A DNA stretch of 64,000 bases from Lama guanicoe. Its lineage: Eukaryota. The stretch covers positions 124,001 to 188,000 of the forward strand of contig MU053559.1 in NCBI GenBank assembly GCA_013239625.1. Reading direction: 5' to 3'. A program made the translations under genes and the position numbers. The notes below the pieces were generated by a model. That model was given only the letters and a program-made list of their open reading frames with translations, was not told where the DNA came from and searched no databases. Below are positions 1 through 43,200 of this stretch, one piece after another; the stretch's first letter is position 1, and every line of letters begins with the position of its first letter.

Positions 1-1964
1 GTACGTGTACCCAAGGTCTCTGGCCGACGGTGCTGGAGTAAGGACACAAGTGTACATGGAGTGCCAGTCTCGAGGCAAGCGGCCTCGATTAGGAGGGCGA
101 GGTGGTACCTGGGGCCGGTGTTCCATGAAAGTGGCATTGGGAAGGCGACTGTCTGTGACCTCTATGTCCGCAGAATCGAGCACGCTAACGGCTGGGGGAT
201 GAAAGAGGCAGTCGGCAGAGTACGATACAGAAACCATCTAGGATCTGCTAACTGAATTAATATACTAGCCTCAGCTCATTTCCTTCCCCCTAGAAAGCAC
301 AGACTTGCCTATTTAACTAGGCTCCGCCCCCACGAATAGGTATCCAGATCCCGCCTTCTTAACTAATTTTGGAACTGAATAACCCTCCAGACCTTCCTAC
401 TTTCTTCTAGTAATACGAAGATCCCGCCTCTCATATTAAACCCGTAGCCCCCACCCTGGAAAGAGCTACTCTCGGATTCGGCTGCTGAAGATTCCAGGGC
501 CCGCCCTCTCATTAGCCTATGAACCTCAACCTCTCCTTGACATTTCAAGACACGCCCCCAGTGCGTTTATACGCTCCACCCCTTGACTAGTCGTCTAGGC
601 CCGCCCCGTAACTAAATCCCCATCCTCTACCCTCTCCAGTCTCCGCCTCCTCAGAAATGCCACTCGAAACCCAGCTGAAAAAAGACAGATCCAATCCCGC
701 ACCAACGATGAATCTTGCAACGTTCACCTACTGCAATAACCCTCTCTATGTCACCTCCTAGAGGAATATTCTAGGATAACCCCAGCCGCCTCGAATCGCC
801 ACCGAGCCCCGCCCTCCCAACTCACGCCCATGGGCCCCACCCAGCGGAGTAACTAGCAACCCCGGGCCCGCCACCTCAGAACCCAGCTCCACTCCGGCCA
901 CGCCCTCCAGGAGGCCCAGCCCCCATCACGCACCCTCCTTGGGGCGCAGGCGCAATGAGACGCCGGCCCTGCGAACCAGCGCCGCCACGTCGGCCGCGGC
1001 TCGGGCCGCCAGGGGGCGCGCGTCCAGCCGCGCCAGGAGCTGCCGGGCGCTGGGGCCCGCGGGCGGGGAAAGGCCGCGGCCTGCGCGAGTGAAAAGAACA
1101 GATCAGCGCCCACCCTGAGCCTCAGCGAACCACCACACCCCCGACGATCGAAGACCTAGTATGCCCCTCAAGATCCCCGGGGACCGAGACCACGCCCTCC
1201 GTAGTTCCAGAGGTCGCCGACTGTCCCTCTCACCTCCCGCTATCCCCGACCATCGCGGGTGTGCCCGTGGACCCCCCGCCTGACCCCACGATATCCCTGG
1301 AGATAGCTGTTTAACCTCAATACTCCTGGACACCTCCCAACACCCCGCAAATACCTCTGGAGGTCTCCGACTGCCCCCTTGTAACTCCGGACTACAAACT
1401 CTCCTCCCCAATATGGAGAGGGACCTAGATTTCCCCCAGATGTCCCGACAGAACACGGTCTGCCCCCCACCCCAGTGGCCGCGGCACCCCCGAGTCCCAT
1501 TCCAGATATCCTAGGCAACCCTGACGGCCCACGTAGCCCCAGAGTGCCCCTCCACACATCCCCAGAGGCCCCCGCCTCACTCCCCAAAATGCACCACAGA
1601 CCCTGAGTGCCCAGGTGTCCCCAGTGACCCGGGCAGACCCCTCTGACACATCTCCCCTGAGATTCCCGAGAGCCCCCGGGTCTGGTGCGCTGCCCCGCAG
1701 CGCGGGTGTGGGTGCGGGTGCAGGTAGGGGGCCTCGAGCCCAGCCCCGGTCGCTGGGCCCCTGCCCTCTACGGCCGCCGCCTGCCCGCCGCCGCCGCCGC
1801 CGCTTGGGCGCCAGGGCTGCTTTGTTTACCACCTGTCGAAAGGAAAAGGTGAGGAGCAGACAGGAGGGGCGAGGGCTGGCAGGGACGCGCCCGCTCCCTC
1901 CCCCCCGCCCCGTACCTCCTCTGCTCCTCCTAGGGTCCGCGGCGCCCCCCGCAAGCCGCTCCAT
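1..1964 (-). CDS. MAGIX: MAGI family member X-linked (PDZ protein), first 4 coding exons; gene continues off the left edge
   Basis: Exons 1964-1916 (MERLAGGAADPRRSRG, G|gtacgg), 1080-934 (GRGLSPPAGPSARQLLARLDARPLAARAAADVAALVRRAGVSLRLRPKE), 191-109 (AVSVLDSADIEVTDSRLPNATFMEHRPQ), 32-1 (HRRPETLGTR...). All GT-AG with matching phases; peptide matches the remembered human MAGIX N-terminus; synteny next to GPKOW. Confidence 0.92.
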
Positions 1965-2653
1965 GACCAGGAGTCGGCGGGGTGGACGCACGGCCGCCAG
2001 CGACGCGTTTGGAGCGCCCGGGCGCGCTCACCTGGCGGCCCGCCCGGGCCTGGACGCGGCTGAGGCCGGCCGGTCCCGTGCCCGGCGCCCCGACCAGCGC
2101 CGTGACCTACCTGGCGGCCGGCAAGGAGGCCAGGCTGTGGGAGCCAGCGCGAGCGCTTGGCCTCGCTCTGTCTCAGGCGCTGCCTCTGTTTCCCAGGACC
2201 GTGGGAAACCTCTTTCCACCCAGGGGATGTTGTTACTCCTCTGGTGAGAAGGGGAAGTCGAGGCCCAGACAAGTTAAGGGCCCCACCTGAGCTCTGACAA
2301 CTACCAAGGGGATCCAGAACCCGAACCCAAGTTTACCAGGGTGTTCTGCCGCCTCCAACAGAGCTTTGCACAGCCTAGGCACTCAGTAACTTTGCAGTGA
2401 ATGCTTGCCTCAGCTGGTCCCTACTGGGGAACTGGAAGAGTGTGGTGGGCTGGGGAGGGTGGCGCCCTTGGAGCCTTTGGGGTCCATGGGAGGCTTGGAG
2501 GCCCTGAGCAGGATAAGGTTTGGGGACTCAAAAAGTAGGGAAGGGCAGGCCCCCTGGAGAAGGAGGGGCGGTAGGGGCCTGGACTTGAGGGGGCTTTGAA
2601 GGCACGTTGGTGGGAGGGGACGCCAGCCAGTGAGAGGTGAGAAATGAGGTCCT
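717..2653. repeat. Left arm of ~1937-bp inverted repeat (palindrome arm)
   Basis: Reverse complement of 3917-5853; paired positions sum to 6570 throughout (mirrored ORFs 853-1113/5457-5717, 2405-2599/3971-4165), so no indels seen. Confidence 0.97.
1600..2200. promoter_or_regulatory. CpG island / MAGIX promoter and first exon (duplicated at 4370-4970)
   Basis: Very GC- and CpG-rich, (CCG)n tract at ~1784-1803, surrounds the MAGIX ATG. Confidence 0.75.
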
Positions 2654-3916
2654 ATCTAGGTTTGAAAAGGGGTGGGGTATCCAGAGCTGAAGGCCCAAAT
2701 GGGAGAGTGATTTGCACAGTGCTACTATAGTGGAAGGACGAATGGGGTGCAGTGAGAGAAGGTCTGTGGCCACCATTTTGTGGAGGAAGAAACTGAGTGC
2801 AGGAGGGGCCCAGGGCCCCATAGCCAGCCAACAATAGCTCTGGATTTGGCACCTTACTCCGCACACTTCCTTGGCCCAGTTCCTGTTCCACTATGGGCTG
2901 TAGATGCACTGTGTCCTGACATCCATTCTGGCTGGCTGGACAGCCTCTCTCATCCACTTTGCAGGGTCCCAGTGTTGTGGTACGTGAAAGGGCTGATTGT
3001 TCTCTGCTTTCATTCCTCCTGCAATCTCATGCCCCTCCCATCTCTGACCTGACCTTGTCTGAAGAGGGGCACACTGGACCTCCTTCCCTCCTCTGCCTTG
3101 TTCTCGTGGTGACTACATGGGGTTTTCACAGCTCCCCAAATAGGCCCTCTGTTATTCTCACCTCCCTGCCTTTGCCCATGCTGTTCCCTCTCCCTGGGAG
3201 GCCTTTTCTGACATTTGTCCACCACTGCATGTTATCAAGGCCCAGTTCAAAGGCTCCAATCGTCCATTCTTCCCTTTCTGAAACAAAGAAAGAACACATG
3301 TTCATATGCAGATGGTGTATGATTGACTATGAAGAATTGTAAACCAAAGTGCTTCTGTCTGTGGGGAAGAGTCCAGGCTGATTTATTTTCCTGAGTCTTC
3401 CCAAGAAAATTCGGTTGAGGAGAAAAACCAAGGCTGAGACCTAAGCATCCATGTCCTCTCCTCCATTAGGAAGCCTTGCCTCTCTCTCCTCTAGGGCCCA
3501 GTCCCCTCTCCCTCCCCCTGGGATGTCACCAATTCTGCAGGGCAGTGCCAGTCACCGGGATCATTGGCCTCTGGTCGTCTGCCTGCCTGAACTGGGATCT
3601 GCTGTGTCCCTCTTGGCTATCCCTGGAAGTACAGCTGATGTGTGAGCTCCCAGGATCCCCAGCAGAAGATGGCCGCATCTGCCCACTTTCTCTTCGAAGA
3701 AGCCAGGATGCTTGCTTTATATAATGCTATGTAAACTTCTTACCTATGGCTTGTGGAATGAGAAATAAGCCAACACTGGCACAATTATTATTCCCTAATT
3801 TTATAAATTAGGAAACAGAGGCCCAGACAAGGTAGCTTACTCTCTGCCTGGCTCTGTTCTTATTGAGACTTCGCCGCGCACTGAAGATGGAAATGGCAGC
3901 TTCTAATCTGGCGTTC

Positions 3917-5853
3917 AGGACTTCATTTCTCACCTCTCACTGGCTGGCGTCCCCTCCCACCAACGTGCCTTCAAAGCCCCCTCAAGTCCAGGCCCCTACC
4001 GCCCCTCCTTCTCCAGGGGGCCTGCCCTTCCCTACTTTTTGAGTCCCCAAACCTTATCCTGCTCAGGGCCTCCAAGCCTCCCATGGACCCCAAAGGCTCC
4101 AAGGGCGCCACCCTCCCCAGCCCACCACACTCTTCCAGTTCCCCAGTAGGGACCAGCTGAGGCAAGCATTCACTGCAAAGTTACTGAGTGCCTAGGCTGT
4201 GCAAAGCTCTGTTGGAGGCGGCAGAACACCCTGGTAAACTTGGGTTCGGGTTCTGGATCCCCTTGGTAGTTGTCAGAGCTCAGGTGGGGCCCTTAACTTG
4301 TCTGGGCCTCGACTTCCCCTTCTCACCAGAGGAGTAACAACATCCCCTGGGTGGAAAGAGGTTTCCCACGGTCCTGGGAAACAGAGGCAGCGCCTGAGAC
4401 AGAGCGAGGCCAAGCGCTCGCGCTGGCTCCCACAGCCTGGCCTCCTTGCCGGCCGCCAGGTAGGTCACGGCGCTGGTCGGGGCGCCGGGCACGGGACCGG
4501 CCGGCCTCAGCCGCGTCCAGGCCCGGGCGGGCCGCCAGGTGAGCGCGCCCGGGCGCTCCAAACGCGTCGCTGGCGGCCGTGCGTCCACCCCGCCGACTCC
4601 TGGTCATGGAGCGGCTTGCGGGGGGCGCCGCGGACCCTAGGCGGAGCAGAGGAGGGACGGGGCGGGGGGGAGGGAGCGGGCGCGTCCCTGCCAGCCCTCG
4701 CCCCTCCTGTCTGCTCCTCACCTTTTCCTTTCGACAGGTGGTAAACAAAGCAGCCCTGGCGCCCAAGCGGCGGCGGCGGCGGCGGGCAGGCGGCGGCCGT
4801 AGAGGGCAGGGGCCCAGCGACCGGGGCTGGGCTCGAGGCCCCCTACCTGCACCCGCACCCACACCCGCGCTGCGGGGCAGCGCACCAGACCCGGGGGCTC
4901 TCGGGAATCTCAGGGGAGATGTGTCAGAGGGGTCTGCCCGGGTCACTGGGGACACCTGGGCACTCAGGGTCTGTGGTGCATTTTGGGGAGTGAGGCGGGG
5001 GCCTCTGGGGATGTGTGGAGGGGCACTCTGGGGCTACGTGGGCCGTCAGGGTTGCCTAGGATATCTGGAATGGGACTCGGGGGTGCCGCGGCCACTGGGG
5101 TGGGGGGCAGACCGTGTTCTGTCGGGACATCTGGGGGAAATCTAGGTCCCTCTCCATATTGGGGAGGAGAGTTTGTAGTCCGGAGTTACAAGGGGGCAGT
5201 CGGAGACCTCCAGAGGTATTTGCGGGGTGTTGGGAGGTGTCCAGGAGTATTGAGGTTAAACAGCTATCTCCAGGGATATCGTGGGGTCAGGCGGGGGGTC
5301 CACGGGCACACCCGCGATGGTCGGGGATAGCGGGAGGTGAGAGGGACAGTCGGCGACCTCTGGAACTACGGAGGGCGTGGTCTCGGTCCCCGGGGATCTT
5401 GAGGGGCATACTAGGTCTTCGATCGTCGGGGGTGTGGTGGTTCGCTGAGGCTCAGGGTGGGCGCTGATCTGTTCTTTTCACTCGCGCAGGCCGCGGCCTT
5501 TCCCCGCCCGCGGGCCCCAGCGCCCGGCAGCTCCTGGCGCGGCTGGACGCGCGCCCCCTGGCGGCCCGAGCCGCGGCCGACGTGGCGGCGCTGGTTCGCA
5601 GGGCCGGCGTCTCATTGCGCCTGCGCCCCAAGGAGGGTGCGTGATGGGGGCTGGGCCTCCTGGAGGGCGTGGCCGGAGTGGAGCTGGGTTCTGAGGTGGC
5701 GGGCCCGGGGTTGCTAGTTACTCCGCTGGGTGGGGCCCATGGGCGTGAGTTGGGAGGGCGGGGCTCGGCGGCGATTCGAGGCGGCTGGGGTTATCCTAGA
5801 ATATTCCTCTAGGAGGTGACATAGAGAGGGTTATTGCAGTAGGTGAACGTTGC
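3917..5853. repeat. Right arm of ~1937-bp inverted repeat
   Basis: Reverse complement of 717-2653; differences seen at 801/5769, 1914/4656, 1928/4642 and 2648/3922. Confidence 0.97.
4606..5636 (+). pseudogene. MAGIX: Partial duplicate of MAGIX (exon 1 4606-4654, exon 2 5490-5636) without downstream exons
   Basis: Same coding sequence as left-arm exons 1-2; exon-1 donor reads GG (4655-4656) instead of GT; the repeat ends inside intron 2. Confidence 0.85.
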
Positions 5854-6374
5854 GAATATTGGACTTCCTGTTTTCAAGACCATCCTCTGAGCCACCGTAC
5901 TATTCTGCTTTCCAAACATTGTTACTATGTCCCATTTCATTTAATTATATGTATACTTTCACATTTAAAGGGTCCAATATATTTGCTCCATTCAAGCCAT
6001 GTGCCCATTTAGCCCATCCCGTAATGTTGTTCATTTAAGTGGTCTTCAAGCTTTTGCTACAATAAATAATACTCTGATGAATCTTGTATAAATTTTTTTT
6101 GCACATCTTCGATGATTTCCTTGGGAAGAATTTTTAGCAGATTTGTAGTATTCTTTCTTATGACTATTTAAGTATCAGTCTCTTAAGGTCCTACACAAGA
6201 GGAGTCTATCTCATTAATCTTCTGAAGCCTTAGGATCTGGCTCTCACGACATATTTAAAGTTGGTAGGAATTGTTTTTGCTTTTGTTTTTGCTTTTGTTT
6301 TAATATCCGTTTAAGTGTCATTGATCCCCGCTGGAGTAGGAGCCTCTAGAGAGGAGGCCCCTCTATTTTATTAA

Positions 6375-6582
6375 TACATTTGACCCTTGAACAAAAGGGG
6401 GTTAGGGCAGCGACCCAGTGCAGTCTAAAATCCCCATATAACTTTAGTCTCCCCTCCATGTTCCACATCCTTGGATTCAACGAATCTTGCATCATGCAGT
6501 ACTGTAGTAGGTAGTTAGTGACAGATACCCACATATAAGTGGCCCCTTGCAGTTCAAACCATGTTATTCAAGGATCAACTGT
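6375..6582. mobile_element. TcMar-Tigger MITE (MER8/Tigger2-like)
   Basis: ta-catttgacccttgaac ... ttcaaggatcaactg-ta terminal inverted repeats with TA target site. Confidence 0.75.
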
Positions 6583-6809
6583 ATCTGAATCCAGAATTTG
6601 TCCAGTATTAAATCTGTCACGTGTAGGCACCATTTACATGTCTATTTTTTATTATCATACACAACTGGCACTCACAGATGTTTTTATTATTGACTTTTGT
6701 TACCTACACTTCCCACACCAGTAGGGCAGAATAACGAGCACACAGTAAACGCCTACAGGAAGGAATCAATACTTGGCAAGAACGAACCCACCTTCTACCA
6801 AGCCTACCT

Positions 6810-7035
6810 CCTCCAAGAACTACATTTCCCGGTATGCTTGGCGCCACGCTCTCCTGTGACGTAAAAAGAGCGGCAATTACTTCCTATGGCCCCTTAGCCT
6901 TTGACCGCCAGTGCCGCAGTGTTTCACGGGTAAAGTAGTTCTAGTGCTCGTGGTCCGCCCCCCGGAAAAGTGAGAACAAACTAAACTTCCCATCAAGCAG
7001 CGCTCCGACCTGGGAAGAGGGGCAAGATGGCGGAC
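6810..7035. promoter_or_regulatory. GPKOW promoter
   Basis: ZNF143/ACTACA-type motifs (gaactacatttcccggtatgc 6817-6837, reverse copy ~6920-6941, aactaaacttcccatcaagc ~6979-6998), CRE half-site tgacgt, YY1 motif aagatggcgg overlapping the ATG. Confidence 0.7.
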
Positions 7036-10000
7036 GCTGAAGATGGTATATTGCGGCCGGCGAGAGCCTCCACTGTCCCAATTTCATTCACCTTCACTCG
7101 AGTATCTGCCCGGATTCTGCTGGCGGGAGACGGCGCGGGTGCGGCTCCGGAGGATAAGGATTTCTTGAAGACCGTGGAAGGGAGAGAGCTACAGAGGTGA
7201 AGCGCTGGGTCTTTCGTCCGTTGGAAACCAGTGCAGTGGGTGCCTGCGGGAGGGTGGAATCAGAGTTGATTGTCTTGGTGACAGCGGCCTGTAAAGCCTA
7301 AAGCACTGCGTGAGGAAATTTCGTGGAAGCGAGAAGGCGGGAGTTAGTAGGAGAGGGGGGCGGAAATTGGACCTGTTGACCCTAGGGGTTGAAAGGAGAG
7401 GATATAATCCTGAAAGGGAGTGTCTGTAGGGCTTGGAGGCCCTGAGGAGCCTGCGTTCTGAAAAAGGGAAAGAGGGGAGAATGACAGGACTCCTAGTGTC
7501 CCAGCTAAAGCGGTGGGGCTTGTCCAATATGGCAAATGGGATGGAGCGGCAGATTCAGGTTGGAGGAGACCCTCATCAGCTTAATTGGGAAAGGAGAGCC
7601 TGATACAGGGACTTCCAGAAGAGAATCAACCATCCAGGAGGCTGGTGTGGAGCCTGGAGCTGGGGAAAGAGTCCAGGCTGAAGATGGTGATTTGTAGGTC
7701 ATTGTGGAAACCATGGAAGTGGGTCTTGGGGTGAATAGAGGGTCCAGAACTGAGACCGGTTCCTCAGAAGCATTGGTATTTAAGTTGAGGGTGGGGCAGA
7801 GAATCCAAAGAAAGCCTCACCAGCGACCTAACAGGAGAGCCAGACAGAAGAAGGGAGGGGTTGAGTGACTTGGGGCTGAGGGTGAGTTTGGCTCTTGTGT
7901 TTTTCCCCTGAATGAAGGGGTATGGCTCAGAACCCACTGATCGTGCTGCTCCCCCAACTTCACCCCTCTGTGTCCACATCAGTGTGAAGCCCTCAGAAGC
8001 CCCCAAGGAACTTGTCATCCCTTTGATCCAGAATGGCCATCGCAGGCAGCCACCCACCCAGGCCCCTGGACCATCCATACATCCTGAGGTCTTGGCGGAT
8101 GGAATGCTGTCCCAAGCTGTGAAGGAACTCATTGAGGGTGAGTGCTCCCTCCTTTGCCTTGCCCTAGTGAAGGAAGAAGGGGAGGAAAGCGGAAGGATAG
8201 GGTGGGACCTCATTGCTCCCTCCCATTCTTCCTTAGAATCCAAGAAGTCTCTGGAGGAGAGAGAGAATGCGGGTGTCGACCCCACGCTCGCTATCCCCAT
8301 GATCCAGAAAGGATGCACCCCCAACGGGGAAGGGGCAGACAGCGAACCCCGGGCTGAGACAGTGAGCTGGCCCCTTGCCTCCCTCCTTCCCCAGTCTCTC
8401 ATTACCCTGTCGGCCAGGCCGGCCTCCCTGAACACAGAAGGAAAAGTCTGTGTGTATACAAGAGGCCTGCTGCCTCTCCCTTCCTCCTTTCATCATTTTT
8501 AGAAGCATTAACAAGTGAACAAGTACTCGGATTCTGGGATTATCTGAATGAGACAAGGAGCAGAGGGAACAGGAAATGTAGAAATCCTGAGAGTAGACTC
8601 TGCCTGGAGTGTTTGAGGAACACCAGGGAGACCAGTGGAGCTGGAGTGAGGGGTATGGATAGTTGATGAAGTCAGAAGTCAGCCACAGTGAGGACTTTGG
8701 CTTTTACTCTGAGTGAGATGAGAGCCATGGGAGGGCTCTGAGCAGAGAAGGGACAAGACTTACGATTTGACAGGCTCTTTCTGGCTGCTATGAGCAGAAC
8801 TAGTGAGCAAAGGTGGAGGCAAGGAGACCAGCAGTCCAGGCTAGAGAGGGTGGAGGCTCAGGCCAGAGCAGTAGGAGTGAGGTCAGGAAGGACAGGGAGG
8901 GTTTAGTGAGAGATGGCAGAGCAGGGTGAATGCTCCTAATGGCAGTGATGACCCAAACACTGGCATGGTGGCAGGAAATGGCATGGGAGCAGGTGTGGTG
9001 TGTGCCTATCAGTGAGGCAACTTGTGGTGTGTTTGCAACAAATATAAAGAATTGAAGGACTGATGATGGGAGGTGATAACACGAGAAGTGAGGGGTGTGT
9101 CCACAGCAGTAACCAAGTCTGTTTTTCATACCCATGGACCCTACTTTTCACTCTTTACTCACAGTTTTGGTTTTTTGCAATGCTTTCTTGGTTCCTAGTT
9201 CTCCTATGGCCCCAAACCACTCTCTCTTTTGACTGAACTGTTCTCATTGGCCTTCAGACATCCTCTGGTTTCTTTCATCTTAAAAAAAAAAGACCTTCAC
9301 TCTCTCTCCTGTTCCAGCTTTGGCCTCCTTTCATTTTCCCTCCTCTCGTAGCCTTCTACACCTCAGTTGATTACAGTTCCATCCATCCTTCCTCTCACTT
9401 AGCCTAAAAACCTTAGGGTCACGCTTGACGCCTTTTATTTCATACCCTGTGTACAATCTGTCAGCAAAATCCTGTCATCTCCTTTTTCAAAATATATCCA
9501 GAGTCAGATGACTTCTCACCATCACCTCTACACCACTCTGGTCTGAGCCACCAGCATTTCTCATCTGGACTAATGCAGTAACTTCCTCTCTGGTCCCCTT
9601 TTGGCTGCCATCCTATTGTGGCTTCTGCCCAGCTCTCCTCAGCCTCCATATCTGTTTCAATCAGATTGACTTTCATGATGCTCTTCATACATAGATCTTG
9701 TCCTGGCTCAGGGCCTTTGCTCTTATTGTCCTCTCTGGAGCGCTCTTTCTTCTTATATCCTCAGAGCTCCCTCTGTCATCTTTTGGTCTCTGCTCAGATG
9801 TCAACTCAGTGACATTCCCTTCGCCATCCCTCTGCATCCCCTTAACCTCCTTTATTTTTTTTCACATAACATATCACTATCTGACATACTGTTTTATGTA
9901 TTTTATTTGTGATGTCTCCACAACTAGAATGAAAGCCACATAAGGGGAGGAGTTTTTGTCTCTTTCGTCTGCTGCTTTATCCCCAGCACCTAGAACAGTA

Positions 10001-30047: not shown

Positions 30048-30822
30048 GATGGTGGATATCTAGGTATCTGGGTATCTAGGACAGGGCTCTTGAGTAGGTG
30101 CTGGCGTTGGAAAGTGTATAATGAGCGTGGTCTTGGACGTAAGGGGGGAGCGGTGTGTGAGGCATCCCGGGGCAGGGTTCTTGGGTGGAACAGATCTTTG
30201 GAATGGGGGCGGATCCCAAAAAAAAGGGATCTTGGAAGGTGGGGCTGTCCAAAGAATGGGTCTCTGGGGGACGAGGAGGTCCAGTGGAAGTGGTACAGAG
30301 GGAAAGGAGGTTTGGAGGATGGAAAGGGTGTGCCCGGGCAAAGTTTTGGGGGAGATGAAGGTTTGAAGGGAGTTTGGGGGCTCCAGGGCAGGCGACTTGG
30401 GGGGTGGTTGAGTTGTCCCAGGTAGGGGATGGCTGGGTGGATGGTGGATATCTAGGTATCTGGGTATCTAGGACAGGGCTCTTGAGTAGGTGCTGGCGTT
30501 GGAAAGTGTATAATGAGCGTGGTCTTGGACGTAAGGGGGGAGCGGTGTGTGAGGCATCCCGGGGCAGGGTTCTTGGGTGGAACAGATCTTTGGAATGGGG
30601 GCGGATCCCAAAAAAAAGGGATCTTGGAAGGTGGGGCTGTCCAAAGAATGGGTCTCTGGAGGAGGAGGAGGTCCAGTGGAAGTGGTACAGAGGGAAAGGA
30701 GGTTTGGAGGATGGAAAGGGTGTGCCCGGGCAAAGTTTTGGGGGAGATGAAGGTTTGAAGGGAGTTTGGGGGCTCCAGGGCAGGCGACTTGGGGGGTGGT
30801 TGAGTTGTCCCAGGTAGGGGAT
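30048..30822. repeat. Direct tandem duplication, 2 x 383 bp (30048-30430, 30440-30822)
   Basis: Period 392 (ORFs 30060/30452 and 30121/30513); 9-nt filler ggctgggtg; 2 mismatches seen. Confidence 0.95.
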
Positions 30823-40249: not shown

Positions 40250-43200
40250 TCAGACCAGTGTCCCCGGGGTCTGGGGGTCAGAACCAGAGGACTGCTCCCC
40301 CTCTAGCGTCAGGTCACTTAAACGAGCGCTCAGCTCCGGGGGGTACAGGAAGTCCGCGTAGTATCTTTGGAAGGGGTAGCAGGAATCCGGAGGACAGGGT
40401 AGGAAGACAGAGGAGAGAGGAAAAGACGGACAAGACACAGAAAGAGAGAGGAAAAGAGGCTCGTTAAAGAGGTGGAGGCAGGCACAGGACAGCACCGTTA
40501 GGCTCACGAGCAGGGGACACGGTGAAAGTAGGAAGAGACAGGCGAGGGGCATAGGACGTCCCTTCCTCCCAGCACCCTGGTTTCAAGGCTCATTTTCAGC
40601 TGACATGCACTGGTTGTTCAAATGCTAAAATCCTAACATAGCGTGGTGAAGAACTGCTCCTACCAGGGCCCAAGACACCCCTCCGCAGAGACCCCACGGA
40701 CTAATGCGGGTCAGGCAGGGCCCCGTGTCCCCAGACCAAGGCTGCGGCTAGTTCTCCTGTGGTCCATGTCATTTGCGATCATGACCAGCGGCCCCCGTGG
40801 CCTGGACACCTTGACTGACTGCCTCAAGAGACCCCTACCCGTCAGTAAAAGCACCCCCCATACCTGCCGGAGACAGGGGGCGCCGTGAAACTCCTCGAGT
40901 GTGGGAGCGGCGCCTGGCTGGGGGCCCCGTACAGCGCCTGGCCCACCTCATAGCAGCGAGCATGGAGGAAGGGTGGGTGCTGCGGGCCCATGGCGGGGAG
41001 CACAGGCCGGCGCTGGGGCCCCGCGGCCAGTCCCGAGTTCCGGATGTACCAGTCCCGCAGCCCCTCCAGGGCCAGGTTCTTGTGGCCGCTGCGCTCAGCA
41101 GCCGGGGGAAGACGGGCGGGCGGGGGCATCCACAGCAGGGGGTTGGGATGCACCTCTGGACCCTCGGCAGCCTCCAGGGGCAGGCCACAGGGCTTGGTGC
41201 GGGCGGCACGGCTGTGGGGGTCCTTGCTGCGGAGAAGGGGGCTGCTGCCGTCAGCTGCGTACACAGGTGGTGGGCCTGGGAGCATGGCGAGGAGCCCATC
41301 CCGGCGGGAGAGGGGTCCTGGGACCTCGGCTGTGGGCAGCAGCTCCCCCCAGCCGGTCCCGCCGCCACCGCGGGGCAGGCCCCGGTCCAGGGAATAGTCC
41401 AAGAGGAAGTCCCCGCACACAGGTGGGAGGCGGGGGGCCCCGCGAGAGGCGGGGGCGGCTGAGCTAGGCCGGAGCAGCTCCCCCCAGCCGGTCCCGCCGC
41501 CACCGCGGGGCAGGCCCCGGTCCAGGGAATAGTCCAAGAGGAAGTCCCCGCACACAGGTGGGAGGCGGGGGGCCCCGGGAGGGGCGGGGGCGGCTGAGCT
41601 AGGCCGGGCAGCCCGGGGAGGGTCTGGGGGGCCAGCTGTACGGGAGGAGAAGGCAGGGGTGGGTTGGGGGCGCTCGTACAGCACCTCACTGCTCTTGCAG
41701 ACCGGGGGCCCAGCGGCAGGGGGCACCAGAGGCGCAGGTGGGGAGCCAGCTCCCCCACCAGCCGCCCGGTCCACCAGCAGGGCCTCGGAGCTATTGCTGC
41801 GGCGGGTGCGAGCAGCGAAGAGGGAGGCGCGGTCGGAGACAGGGTCAGCCCGGGGGAAGCCCATCTGGGAGTCCTGGCTGCCGGACCACTGGCGAGAATG
41901 GAGGCCTTCGGGTCTGGGGGCACAGAGGTGGGGGTGAAAGGAGACGGGTCAGAAATATCAGGCAGATGGGATGAGTGCCCTCCCTACCCTCCCTCTTTCT
42001 GAGCCTTCACTTCCACGCCACCAAATGGGCCCAGGATTAGAAGCTGTGTGTATAAAGGTGTTGGGGAGTGGTATGTAAAGGGCGGCAGAGGTTCTGCCCT
42101 GGACTAGGGGGCAGAGGGGTTGAAAATCGGGGTGCCTGGGACTCCAAGGGAGATGGAAGTGTGCTTAGGGCTGGAGAGGAAATGCTAGCAGGGGAGGGCA
42201 GAGGGCTCTTCCTAACACATCTGACCCCTCATCCCCTGCTAAGGTGCTTCTTCGGGCTCCCTGCCTGCTCCATGATGAGGCCAGGAATTCAAGACCCTTC
42301 TGGAACTCTCTGTCCCATCATGGGTATGAACCACCCCAAACTATCATCCCAATAGCCTCTATTCACAGAATGCAAGTGCCACAGGGATGGGGACTTTGTT
42401 GTGTTCACGGCCTGGAAAAAGGAGGTATGTTATCTGTTTAAGCAGTGGTAGAGTACAGTAGTTAAAAGCACGGACTCTTGAGTCAAACCTGGGTTCAAAT
42501 ACCAGGTCTTCAGTTTACTAACATGTTACTTAACCTCTGTGCCTCAGTTTCCTCATCTCTAAAATGGGAATAACAATAGTACCTTCCTCATCGGGATCTT
42601 GTGATAATTAAATAAGTCTGATACCAAGGAAAGCACTGACTCCTAGCAGATGGTAGGTACTCGGTACACGTTAACCAGAACTTACTACACCTACAGTGTC
42701 TTCCCCAGACAAATATTATGATGCTCATTTCACAAATGAGGAGACAAAGATTCAGAGAAGGGAAATGACTTGCCCAAAGTGCATAGAAAAGCCCAGACTC
42801 AAACTTTGGTGCTTCTCCCCAAAATCCATACCCCCTTCCCTTCTTCTCTACCAAGACAGCTCCTATTCACCTTTCAAAGCCCAGCCTTTCTTTTCTTTTC
42901 TTTTTTGGTCAATTAAAAATTTTTATTTATAATGTGATATCACACATATACATATATTGCATACTCCAAAAAATCTTTTACTTCTGTTTCTTTAGCATGC
43001 AATAAAACGCATTATGAACAAAAGCTCTGAAACAGAAATAAAATTCTTGCTTTTTCATACAAGCTACAAAGAAAATCAGAACAAAACTGATAGACTCAAA
43101 GCTCAGGCTCTCATGCCCCACACCCTTTGATAATGCTCTCCCTGATACCCCCAGTTAGAGCTACTAGTTCCCTCCTCTGGTCCTCAAACTCACCCTCAGA

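Follow-up and report, generated by a model that had tools for sequence, protein, structure and literature searches.

The promoter and first two exons of MAGIX are present twice in the guanaco (Lama guanicoe), as the two arms of a near-perfect inverted repeat on contig MU053559.1 of assembly GCA_013239625.1. The DNA analyzed spans positions 124,001 to 188,000 of this contig; these 64,000 nucleotides (nt) are called the window, and positions below are counted within it. We consider it likely that this palindrome is an ancient partial inverted duplication of the MAGIX 5′ end, whose arms have been kept nearly identical by arm-to-arm gene conversion and whose second arm is a passenger. We regard it as a newly described, deeply conserved repeat of the X-linked FLNA/EMD type rather than a regulated switch.

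Structure of the guanaco palindrome

Self-comparison of the window placed the arms at 717-2653 and 3917-5853, each 1937 nt long and inverted with respect to the other around a 1263-nt spacer. The arms aligned with exactly 4 mismatches and no gaps (99.79% identity over 1937 nt), which matches the near-perfect 1.94-kb palindrome that had been described in an earlier reading of the letters of this DNA (the original prediction). The mismatches are at L801/R5769, L1914/R4656, L1928/R4642, and L2648/R3922 (left- and right-arm positions). The first and last are transitions close to the arm edges and the third is synonymous, while the second, which was not remarked in the original prediction, changes the exon 1 splice donor from GT to GG in the right arm. 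When a 401-nt arm probe was searched against the whole genome assembly, two copies were found, both of them these arms.

Both arms are CpG-island-like, with observed/expected CpG ratios of 0.53 to 0.88 over exons 1 and 2 of either arm (500-nt windows) compared to 0.08 to 0.30 in the spacer. On the minus strand, the left arm leads into an intact MAGIX of 331 amino acids, composed of exons 1 to 3 and further exons downstream. Gene content and orientation supported the proposal that each arm carries a CpG-island promoter and exons 1 and 2 of MAGIX transcribed outwards. The right copy was also expected to point at GPKOW about 1.2 kb further on, and the GPKOW ATG was indeed measured at position 7027, 1174 nt beyond the right arm; GPKOW has a CpG island of its own.

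The arm edges are sharp, and no leftover homology was detected past them (the observed anchored score was reached in 28/60 and 54/60 shuffles). Likewise, neither a decayed arm extension nor a relic of exon 3 was found in the flanks of the arms in this genome. A single flank match, at the level of 1 in 300 shuffles, was a short AT-rich stretch lying at non-corresponding distances from the two edges and was taken as chance. GC content drops outside all four arm edges, at two of them only slightly, and GC content at third codon positions is 0.88 in the arm exons versus 0.61 elsewhere; because both measures are confounded by the CpG island, they were not taken as evidence of GC-biased conversion.

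Sampled words of the spacer were present at 83 to 100% in 14 DNA sequencing runs from 5 studies, 2 runs being flagged as a possible source, a result that attests the spacer and not the two arms. Presence of the same words in RNA runs was 10 to 35%, which gives no evidence of transcription, and a search for mammalian host DNA in metagenomes returned 599 pattern matches, of which none was confirmed.

The inverted copy in human and other mammals

A pair of inverted segmental duplications, HsInv0074, is listed in human at chrX:49,155,846-49,157,442 and 49,162,798-49,164,374 (hg38), with a spacer of 5,355 bp (Table S1, PMC13629690). In the same coordinates, GPKOW occupies 49,113,406-49,123,735 and MAGIX 49,162,563-49,168,483, and PLP2 is at 49,171,897 (PMC8244145). 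Comparison of these coordinates places the second human repeat 235 to 1811 nt inside the MAGIX 5′ end and the other repeat 32 kb from GPKOW; the human arms are about 1.6 kb and differ by 20 bp in length. Moreover, the human protein model EAW50693.1 starts with a backward reading of arm intron 1 (17 of 29 residues; score of 88 versus a shuffle maximum of 41), and this antisense match ties the human repeat to the same sequence as the guanaco arm. HsInv0074 is very likely the human ortholog of the guanaco palindrome, which it resembles in its place between GPKOW and MAGIX, in having one repeat in the MAGIX 5′ end, and in arm size. It differs in being listed only as the coordinates of an unconfirmed inversion, with no cross-species analysis in the examined parts of that source, whose examined supplement files do not name MAGIX. 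HsInv0074 originated as a paired-end prediction and is marked not polymorphic. According to the supplement tables, 85 chromosome calls from 54 people included no inverted one, and the repeat pair was spanned by nanopore reads (PMC13629690).

For mammals other than human, the evidence is at the protein level. A set of 290 MAGIX-related proteins, many of them isoforms, contained 36 with at least 25 residues upstream of exon 2; these constituted the testable set and were scored for an antisense reading of the arm against the maximum of 20 shuffles per protein. Seven of the 36 read the antisense strand well above the shuffle maxima, namely dromedary (329 versus 64), a caprine-like bovid that is 96% like goat (297 versus 44), fur seal (243 versus 58), cattle (181 versus 58), sea otter (173 versus 54), shrew (133 versus 78), and the human model described above. 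Six others were marginal (two rabbit, two dolphin, reindeer, and colugo), and 23 were not above chance. Such models are annotation accidents, and their absence in a species says nothing.

An antisense arm joined to a sense exon 2 in a collinear model implies either an inverted copy upstream or a locally wrong assembly. In three of the models (shrew, dromedary, and fur seal), one region occurs in each of the two orientations: dromedary XP_031302491.1 reads the arm backwards and then forwards, and shrew P0110, for which 262 of 263 aligned residues match Sorex araneus, likewise has exon 2 in either direction. In the Camelus ferus RefSeq model XP_032330732.1 (P0001), an upstream arm exon (exon B) and exon 2 are joined to a GPKOW-side exon (6725-6864 in the guanaco window), and 143 of 143 compared residues match. 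The name MAGIX is borne in C. ferus by a 144-amino-acid partial copy, and no full-length C. ferus MAGIX is among the 8 members of the camelid cluster. The assembly of C. ferus, or its annotation, may therefore break at the palindrome.

Together, the human coordinates and, at the protein level, the 7 of 36 models place an inverted copy at the orthologous site in distant mammals. The original prediction had offered two branches, a very recent duplication or an old palindrome maintained by conversion, and had regarded absence from related species as speaking against the latter. The old branch is supported by the inverted copies seen in other orders. The recent one, as well as pure misassembly, is disfavored because the inverted copy appears in human, shrew, carnivores, bovids, and Camelus.

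The copies also resemble the MAGIX of their own lineage. The codon compatibility of the shrew's backward exon 2 was 50 of 50 positions for S. araneus, 45 for S. fumeus, and 34 to 42 for the other 122 of the 125 peptides, while 1000 shuffles gave at most 27. Backward exon 1 of fur seal (9/10) and otter (10/10) is the uniquely best fit to the respective lineage among 36 exon-1 types. That the shrew, seal, and otter copies fit their own lineage's MAGIX best is the mark of gene conversion between the arms. A similar pattern was seen for six short models in which exon 3 is missing (C. ferus, jaguar, lynx, armadillo, reindeer, and goat). Compared with 116 full-length proteins, they agree with exon 2 of their own clade at 47 to 49 of 49 residues, and the agreement among the six between families is 37 to 45. 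At the protein level, these cases thus agree with the prediction that conversion makes arms more alike within than between lineages. The lynx short model has intact exons 1 and 2 followed by a tail resembling a decayed exon 3 (8 of 28 residues identical; 7 and 5 of 20,000 shuffles), which suggests that the duplication once extended further and that only its converted core remained intact.

Proposed origin, maintenance, and inversion

From the guanaco arms, the human pair, the lineage-specific fit, and the inverted copies implied by gene models, we infer the following history of conversion, single origin, occasional flipping, and a passenger second arm. A single inverted duplication of the MAGIX 5′ end likely took place early in placental mammals. 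Selection would hold the promoter and exons of the working arm, and non-crossover repair between the arms would copy this working state onto the second arm. Outside the converted tract, sequence would decay, as for lynx exon 3, or be lost, as in the guanaco. A rare arm-to-arm crossover might flip the spacer, an event to which the C. ferus model points, and would hardly alter the MAGIX message; the second arm would be a passenger pseudo-promoter rather than a regulated switch. The origin would date to the placental root if the armadillo short model represents a second locus, and otherwise to the ancestor of human, shrew, and camel, which is roughly 90 to 100 million years old.

Several points weigh against this history. 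Bovid backward exon 1 barely discriminates, fitting the ruminant type at 11 of 12 positions and several others at 10 of 12; the rabbit copy fits at only 15 of 26 positions, and the dromedary exon-1 comparison is uninformative. Outside human, all of the cross-species evidence consists of predicted proteins, some from poor assemblies, and four of the short models (armadillo, jaguar, goat, and reindeer) might represent alternative ends of the single gene. The species sample is without rodents and marsupials, and the human arms are known only by their coordinates. A collapsed assembly could overstate arm identity. Finally, it is somewhat puzzling that a pure passenger should have persisted for so long in many orders.

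Retention by selection offers an alternative that we judge unlikely, in which an old, converted palindrome keeps its second arm as a second CpG-island promoter or enhancer (acting on GPKOW or a non-coding RNA) or as a template from which MAGIX is repaired. The occurrence in several orders, the intact CpG island, and spliced models annotated on the second copy in C. ferus, and possibly in armadillo and jaguar, would fit such a role, but conversion alone preserves sequence, and the rabbit copy, with the fit given above, looks decayed. For GPKOW in particular, the gene has its own island and is 32 kb distant in human; no MAGIX-GPKOW fusion is named among the 120 of 144 matches listed, and the tail of the ruminant short models is not GPKOW exon 2.

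It is considerably less probable that the MAGIX 5′ end was duplicated recently and independently in several lineages, with the guanaco event specific to camelids. The sharp edges with no decayed extension in this genome speak for it, and arm (1.9 versus 1.6 kb) and spacer (1.3 versus 5.4 kb) both differ in size from those of human; the same possibility was left open for the FLNA/EMD repeats in the examined part of PMC8327919. However, at least four or five separate duplications, each of the same exons and identically oriented, would be required, and the decayed exon 3 of lynx points to an old, larger duplication.

An 18-nt first coding exon of the C. ferus model served as a marker of spacer orientation. 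The first six residues of this model had one match in 168,000 positions on both strands, adjoining a GT donor, and 30 shuffles gave no matches; the sequence resembles what we take to be a relic of an old interspersed repeat. In the guanaco the exon is on the minus strand toward MAGIX, whereas the C. ferus model runs toward GPKOW, and thus the two assemblies disagree on spacer orientation. Judged from this one 18-nt exon, seen as protein, a genuine inversion separating camelid lineages and a mistake in either assembly are about equally likely. The proposal that recombination between the arms flips the spacer therefore finds one C. ferus model that needs the opposite orientation, set against 85 of 85 human calls that are non-inverted; flipping looks possible but rare.

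The central proposal of the original prediction, an invertible promoter cassette that swaps which 5′ end drives MAGIX, is not supported. As the arms match except at 4 sites, a flip would change little: the polarity of the spacer and, where the crossover falls within the outer 1.2 kb, the exon-1 donor as well. A regulated invertible promoter of the phase-variation type is likewise at odds with arms that differ at 4 sites and a human ortholog that is monomorphic in 54 people. We regard as highly improbable frequent or regulated flips that switch MAGIX 5′ ends or turn exon-1 splicing off. The opposite spacer orientation of the C. ferus model and the broken donor of the right arm, with 1197 nt of identity-rich arm outside it, would be in keeping with such flips, but the arms are nearly identical, no human call is inverted, and the donor change itself is suspect.

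At L1914/R4656 and L1928/R4642, the changes are T>G and A>C, each immediately following GG within a G-rich run, which is a common type of short-read error. Given this pattern, the fragmented assembly (55,231 contigs), and two suspect tandem doublets in the window, the loss of the right-arm donor was taken as unverified and is possibly a sequencing error. It is not a conserved feature, since exons 1 and 2 are spliced together in the short models that resemble the second copy in armadillo, jaguar, lynx, goat, and reindeer. By the geometry of the arms, a crossover in the inner 725 nt would flip the spacer alone, and one in the outer 1197 nt would exchange the exon-1 sites as well, which matters only if the donor loss is real. 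We would give only a small chance to a bolder account, by which this is among the oldest sequence-orthologous palindromes of mammals, a gene-start mirror of about 2 kb converted since the placental radiation, with a spacer toggling between camelid lineages and an outer-arm crossover that places a donor-less exon 1 before MAGIX, making a natural splice-off allele by rearrangement.

A false inverted duplication made by the assembly is scarcely credible: the assembly is fragmented and has near-perfect doublets elsewhere in the window, but a junction of exon 2 with the GPKOW-side flank is present in the C. ferus model, the dromedary model runs through both arms, and nanopore reads span the human pair.

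Known systems and neighboring features

The repeats at FLNA/EMD are present in 15 further mammals, where they are recurrently inverted and not sequence-orthologous everywhere; in human they form X palindrome P24 (HsInv0389), a 38-kb inversion with an allele frequency of 44% (PMC8327919; bioRxiv 2021.12.20.472354; this and the comparisons that follow refer to the examined parts of the sources). The likeness to these repeats, drawn in the original prediction, is upheld for two high-identity inverted arms around a unique spacer, for occurrence across placental orders, and for arms that are alike within a species; a spacer orientation that differs between lineages would be a further likeness if the C. 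ferus flip is real. It fails for polymorphism, as the MAGIX repeat is non-polymorphic in 54 humans and the FLNA/EMD inversion is common. The MAGIX repeat is also far smaller (arms of 1.6 to 1.9 kb and spacers of 1.3 to 5.4 kb versus a 38-kb inversion), and its arms, being the gene's own 5′ end, are orthologous from order to order, whereas orthology of the FLNA/EMD repeat sequence does not extend to all species.

With the large primate X palindromes (Jackson et al. 2021, PMC8327919), the guanaco repeat shares an arm identity of at least 99% and rearrangement centered on the spacer. Those palindromes have arms above 8 kb with whole gene families, while the 1937-nt arm, which contains only part of a gene, is too short for the cut-off of at least 8 kb; MAGIX is absent from the examined main text of that study. 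When repeats share identical exons, exchange between them has essentially no effect on the mRNA (Aguado et al. 2014, PMC3961182). HsInv0124, HsInv0241, HsInv0344, and HsInv0393 from that work, whose repeats contain 5′ ends or exons of genes, are similar in having exons inside the repeats and an mRNA unaffected by exchange, and differ in being human polymorphisms, whereas the second copy here is a truncated gene start without a paralogous gene body. No published description of the conservation of this repeat was found in literature on MAGIX with inversion, duplication, GPKOW, PLP2, or HsInv0074, although older papers may list the locus; MAGIX is not named in the supplement files examined of PMC6748972 (12 of 18) and PMC10172114 (1 of 2).

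Deeply conserved X palindromes have few described parallels in the examined part of PMC8327919, and a single origin of the FLNA/EMD repeat is uncertain because its sequence is not orthologous everywhere. At MAGIX, the arms consist of coding exons and thus give a direct reading of orthology and of lineage-specific copying. The locus therefore lends itself, on a compact scale, to testing the rate of conversion, the boundaries of its tracts, and the rate of inversion in repeats below 2 kb. The repeat explains the corrupted MAGIX gene models of many mammals, with N termini that read backwards and short "MAGIX-like" genes, and reads over MAGIX exons 1 and 2 would map ambiguously. It lends no support to a new regulatory switch.

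The features of the palindrome and its surroundings are collected in Table 1. MAGIX was identified from protein searches, as was GPKOW to its right, and the gene following MAGIX is, from its peptide, presumably PLP2. The order PLP2-MAGIX-GPKOW is that of the human X, and the contig itself carries no chromosome name. The 331-amino-acid MAGIX differs at 9 positions each from dromedary and Bactrian MAGIX and at 4 from an alpaca isoform, all of them outside the arm exons.

Table 1. Positions of the palindrome and of associated gene features in the window
Feature	Position	Strand	Remark
MAGIX exon 3, outside the arm, single copy here	109..191	-	no decayed copy in right flank
Left (MAGIX-side) arm: CpG island, upstream exon B, exon 1, intron 1, exon 2, 217 nt of intron 2	717..2653	-	
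MAGIX exon 2, functional copy	934..1080	-	100% identical to camel MAGIX models
MAGIX coding exon 1, intact GT donor	1916..1964	-	spliced in camelid RefSeq models P0003 and P0125
Upstream exon B, left arm (AG...GT), mirror of 4330-4459	2111..2240	-	used in models P0001 and, partly, P0372
Spacer, unique, CpG-poor	2654..3916	no strand	
18-nt first coding exon of C. ferus model, then GT donor; spacer-orientation marker	3162..3179	-	
Right (GPKOW-side) arm, inverted copy with 4 mismatches	3917..5853	+	
Upstream exon B, right arm	4330..4459	+	43/43 residues match C. ferus model P0001
Exon 1 copy, right arm; donor GG, not GT, at 4655-4656	4606..4654	+	
Exon 2 copy, right arm, identical to functional copy	5490..5636	+	
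Last exon of C. ferus partial-copy model, GPKOW promoter region	6725..6864	+	46/46 residues
GPKOW exons 1-2, own CpG island	7027..8139	+	

The gap between the right arm and GPKOW (5854-7026) is 1.2 kb here and 32 kb in human, and one lineage has thus lost or gained about 30 kb; the closeness of the second arm to GPKOW is lineage-specific. Within intron 1, an acceptor-like site ends at 4737 (4715-4790 on the plus strand, mirrored at 1780-1855 on the minus strand). Several ruminant and rabbit MAGIX models include intron-1 sequence, which suggests an alternative exon inside the arm. The short models of reindeer (P0058) and goat (P0076) share the same 8-residue exon after MAGIX exon 2, which is neither exon 3 nor GPKOW exon 2. 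A MAGIX-GPKOW fusion was considered for this ruminant tail, which scored best at GPKOW exon 2 among about 6,300 positions, but was rejected, as 3 of 9 positions in the tail conflict with ruminant GPKOW.

The two tandem doublets lie elsewhere in the window. At 30048-30822, a G-rich 392-nt unit is present in exactly two copies of 99% identity, likely an assembly overlap artifact. At 41338-41612, a 135-nt unit is repeated with 2 mismatches, both in a G-run, and duplicates 45 codons in frame within a minus-strand open reading frame of 368 amino acids between stops, which we assume to be CCDC120; this doublet is either a gap-closing artifact or a real in-frame repeat. The region from 13000 to 61300 contains many ordinary interspersed repeats, presumably copies of tRNA-like short interspersed elements and L1-like 3′ ends.

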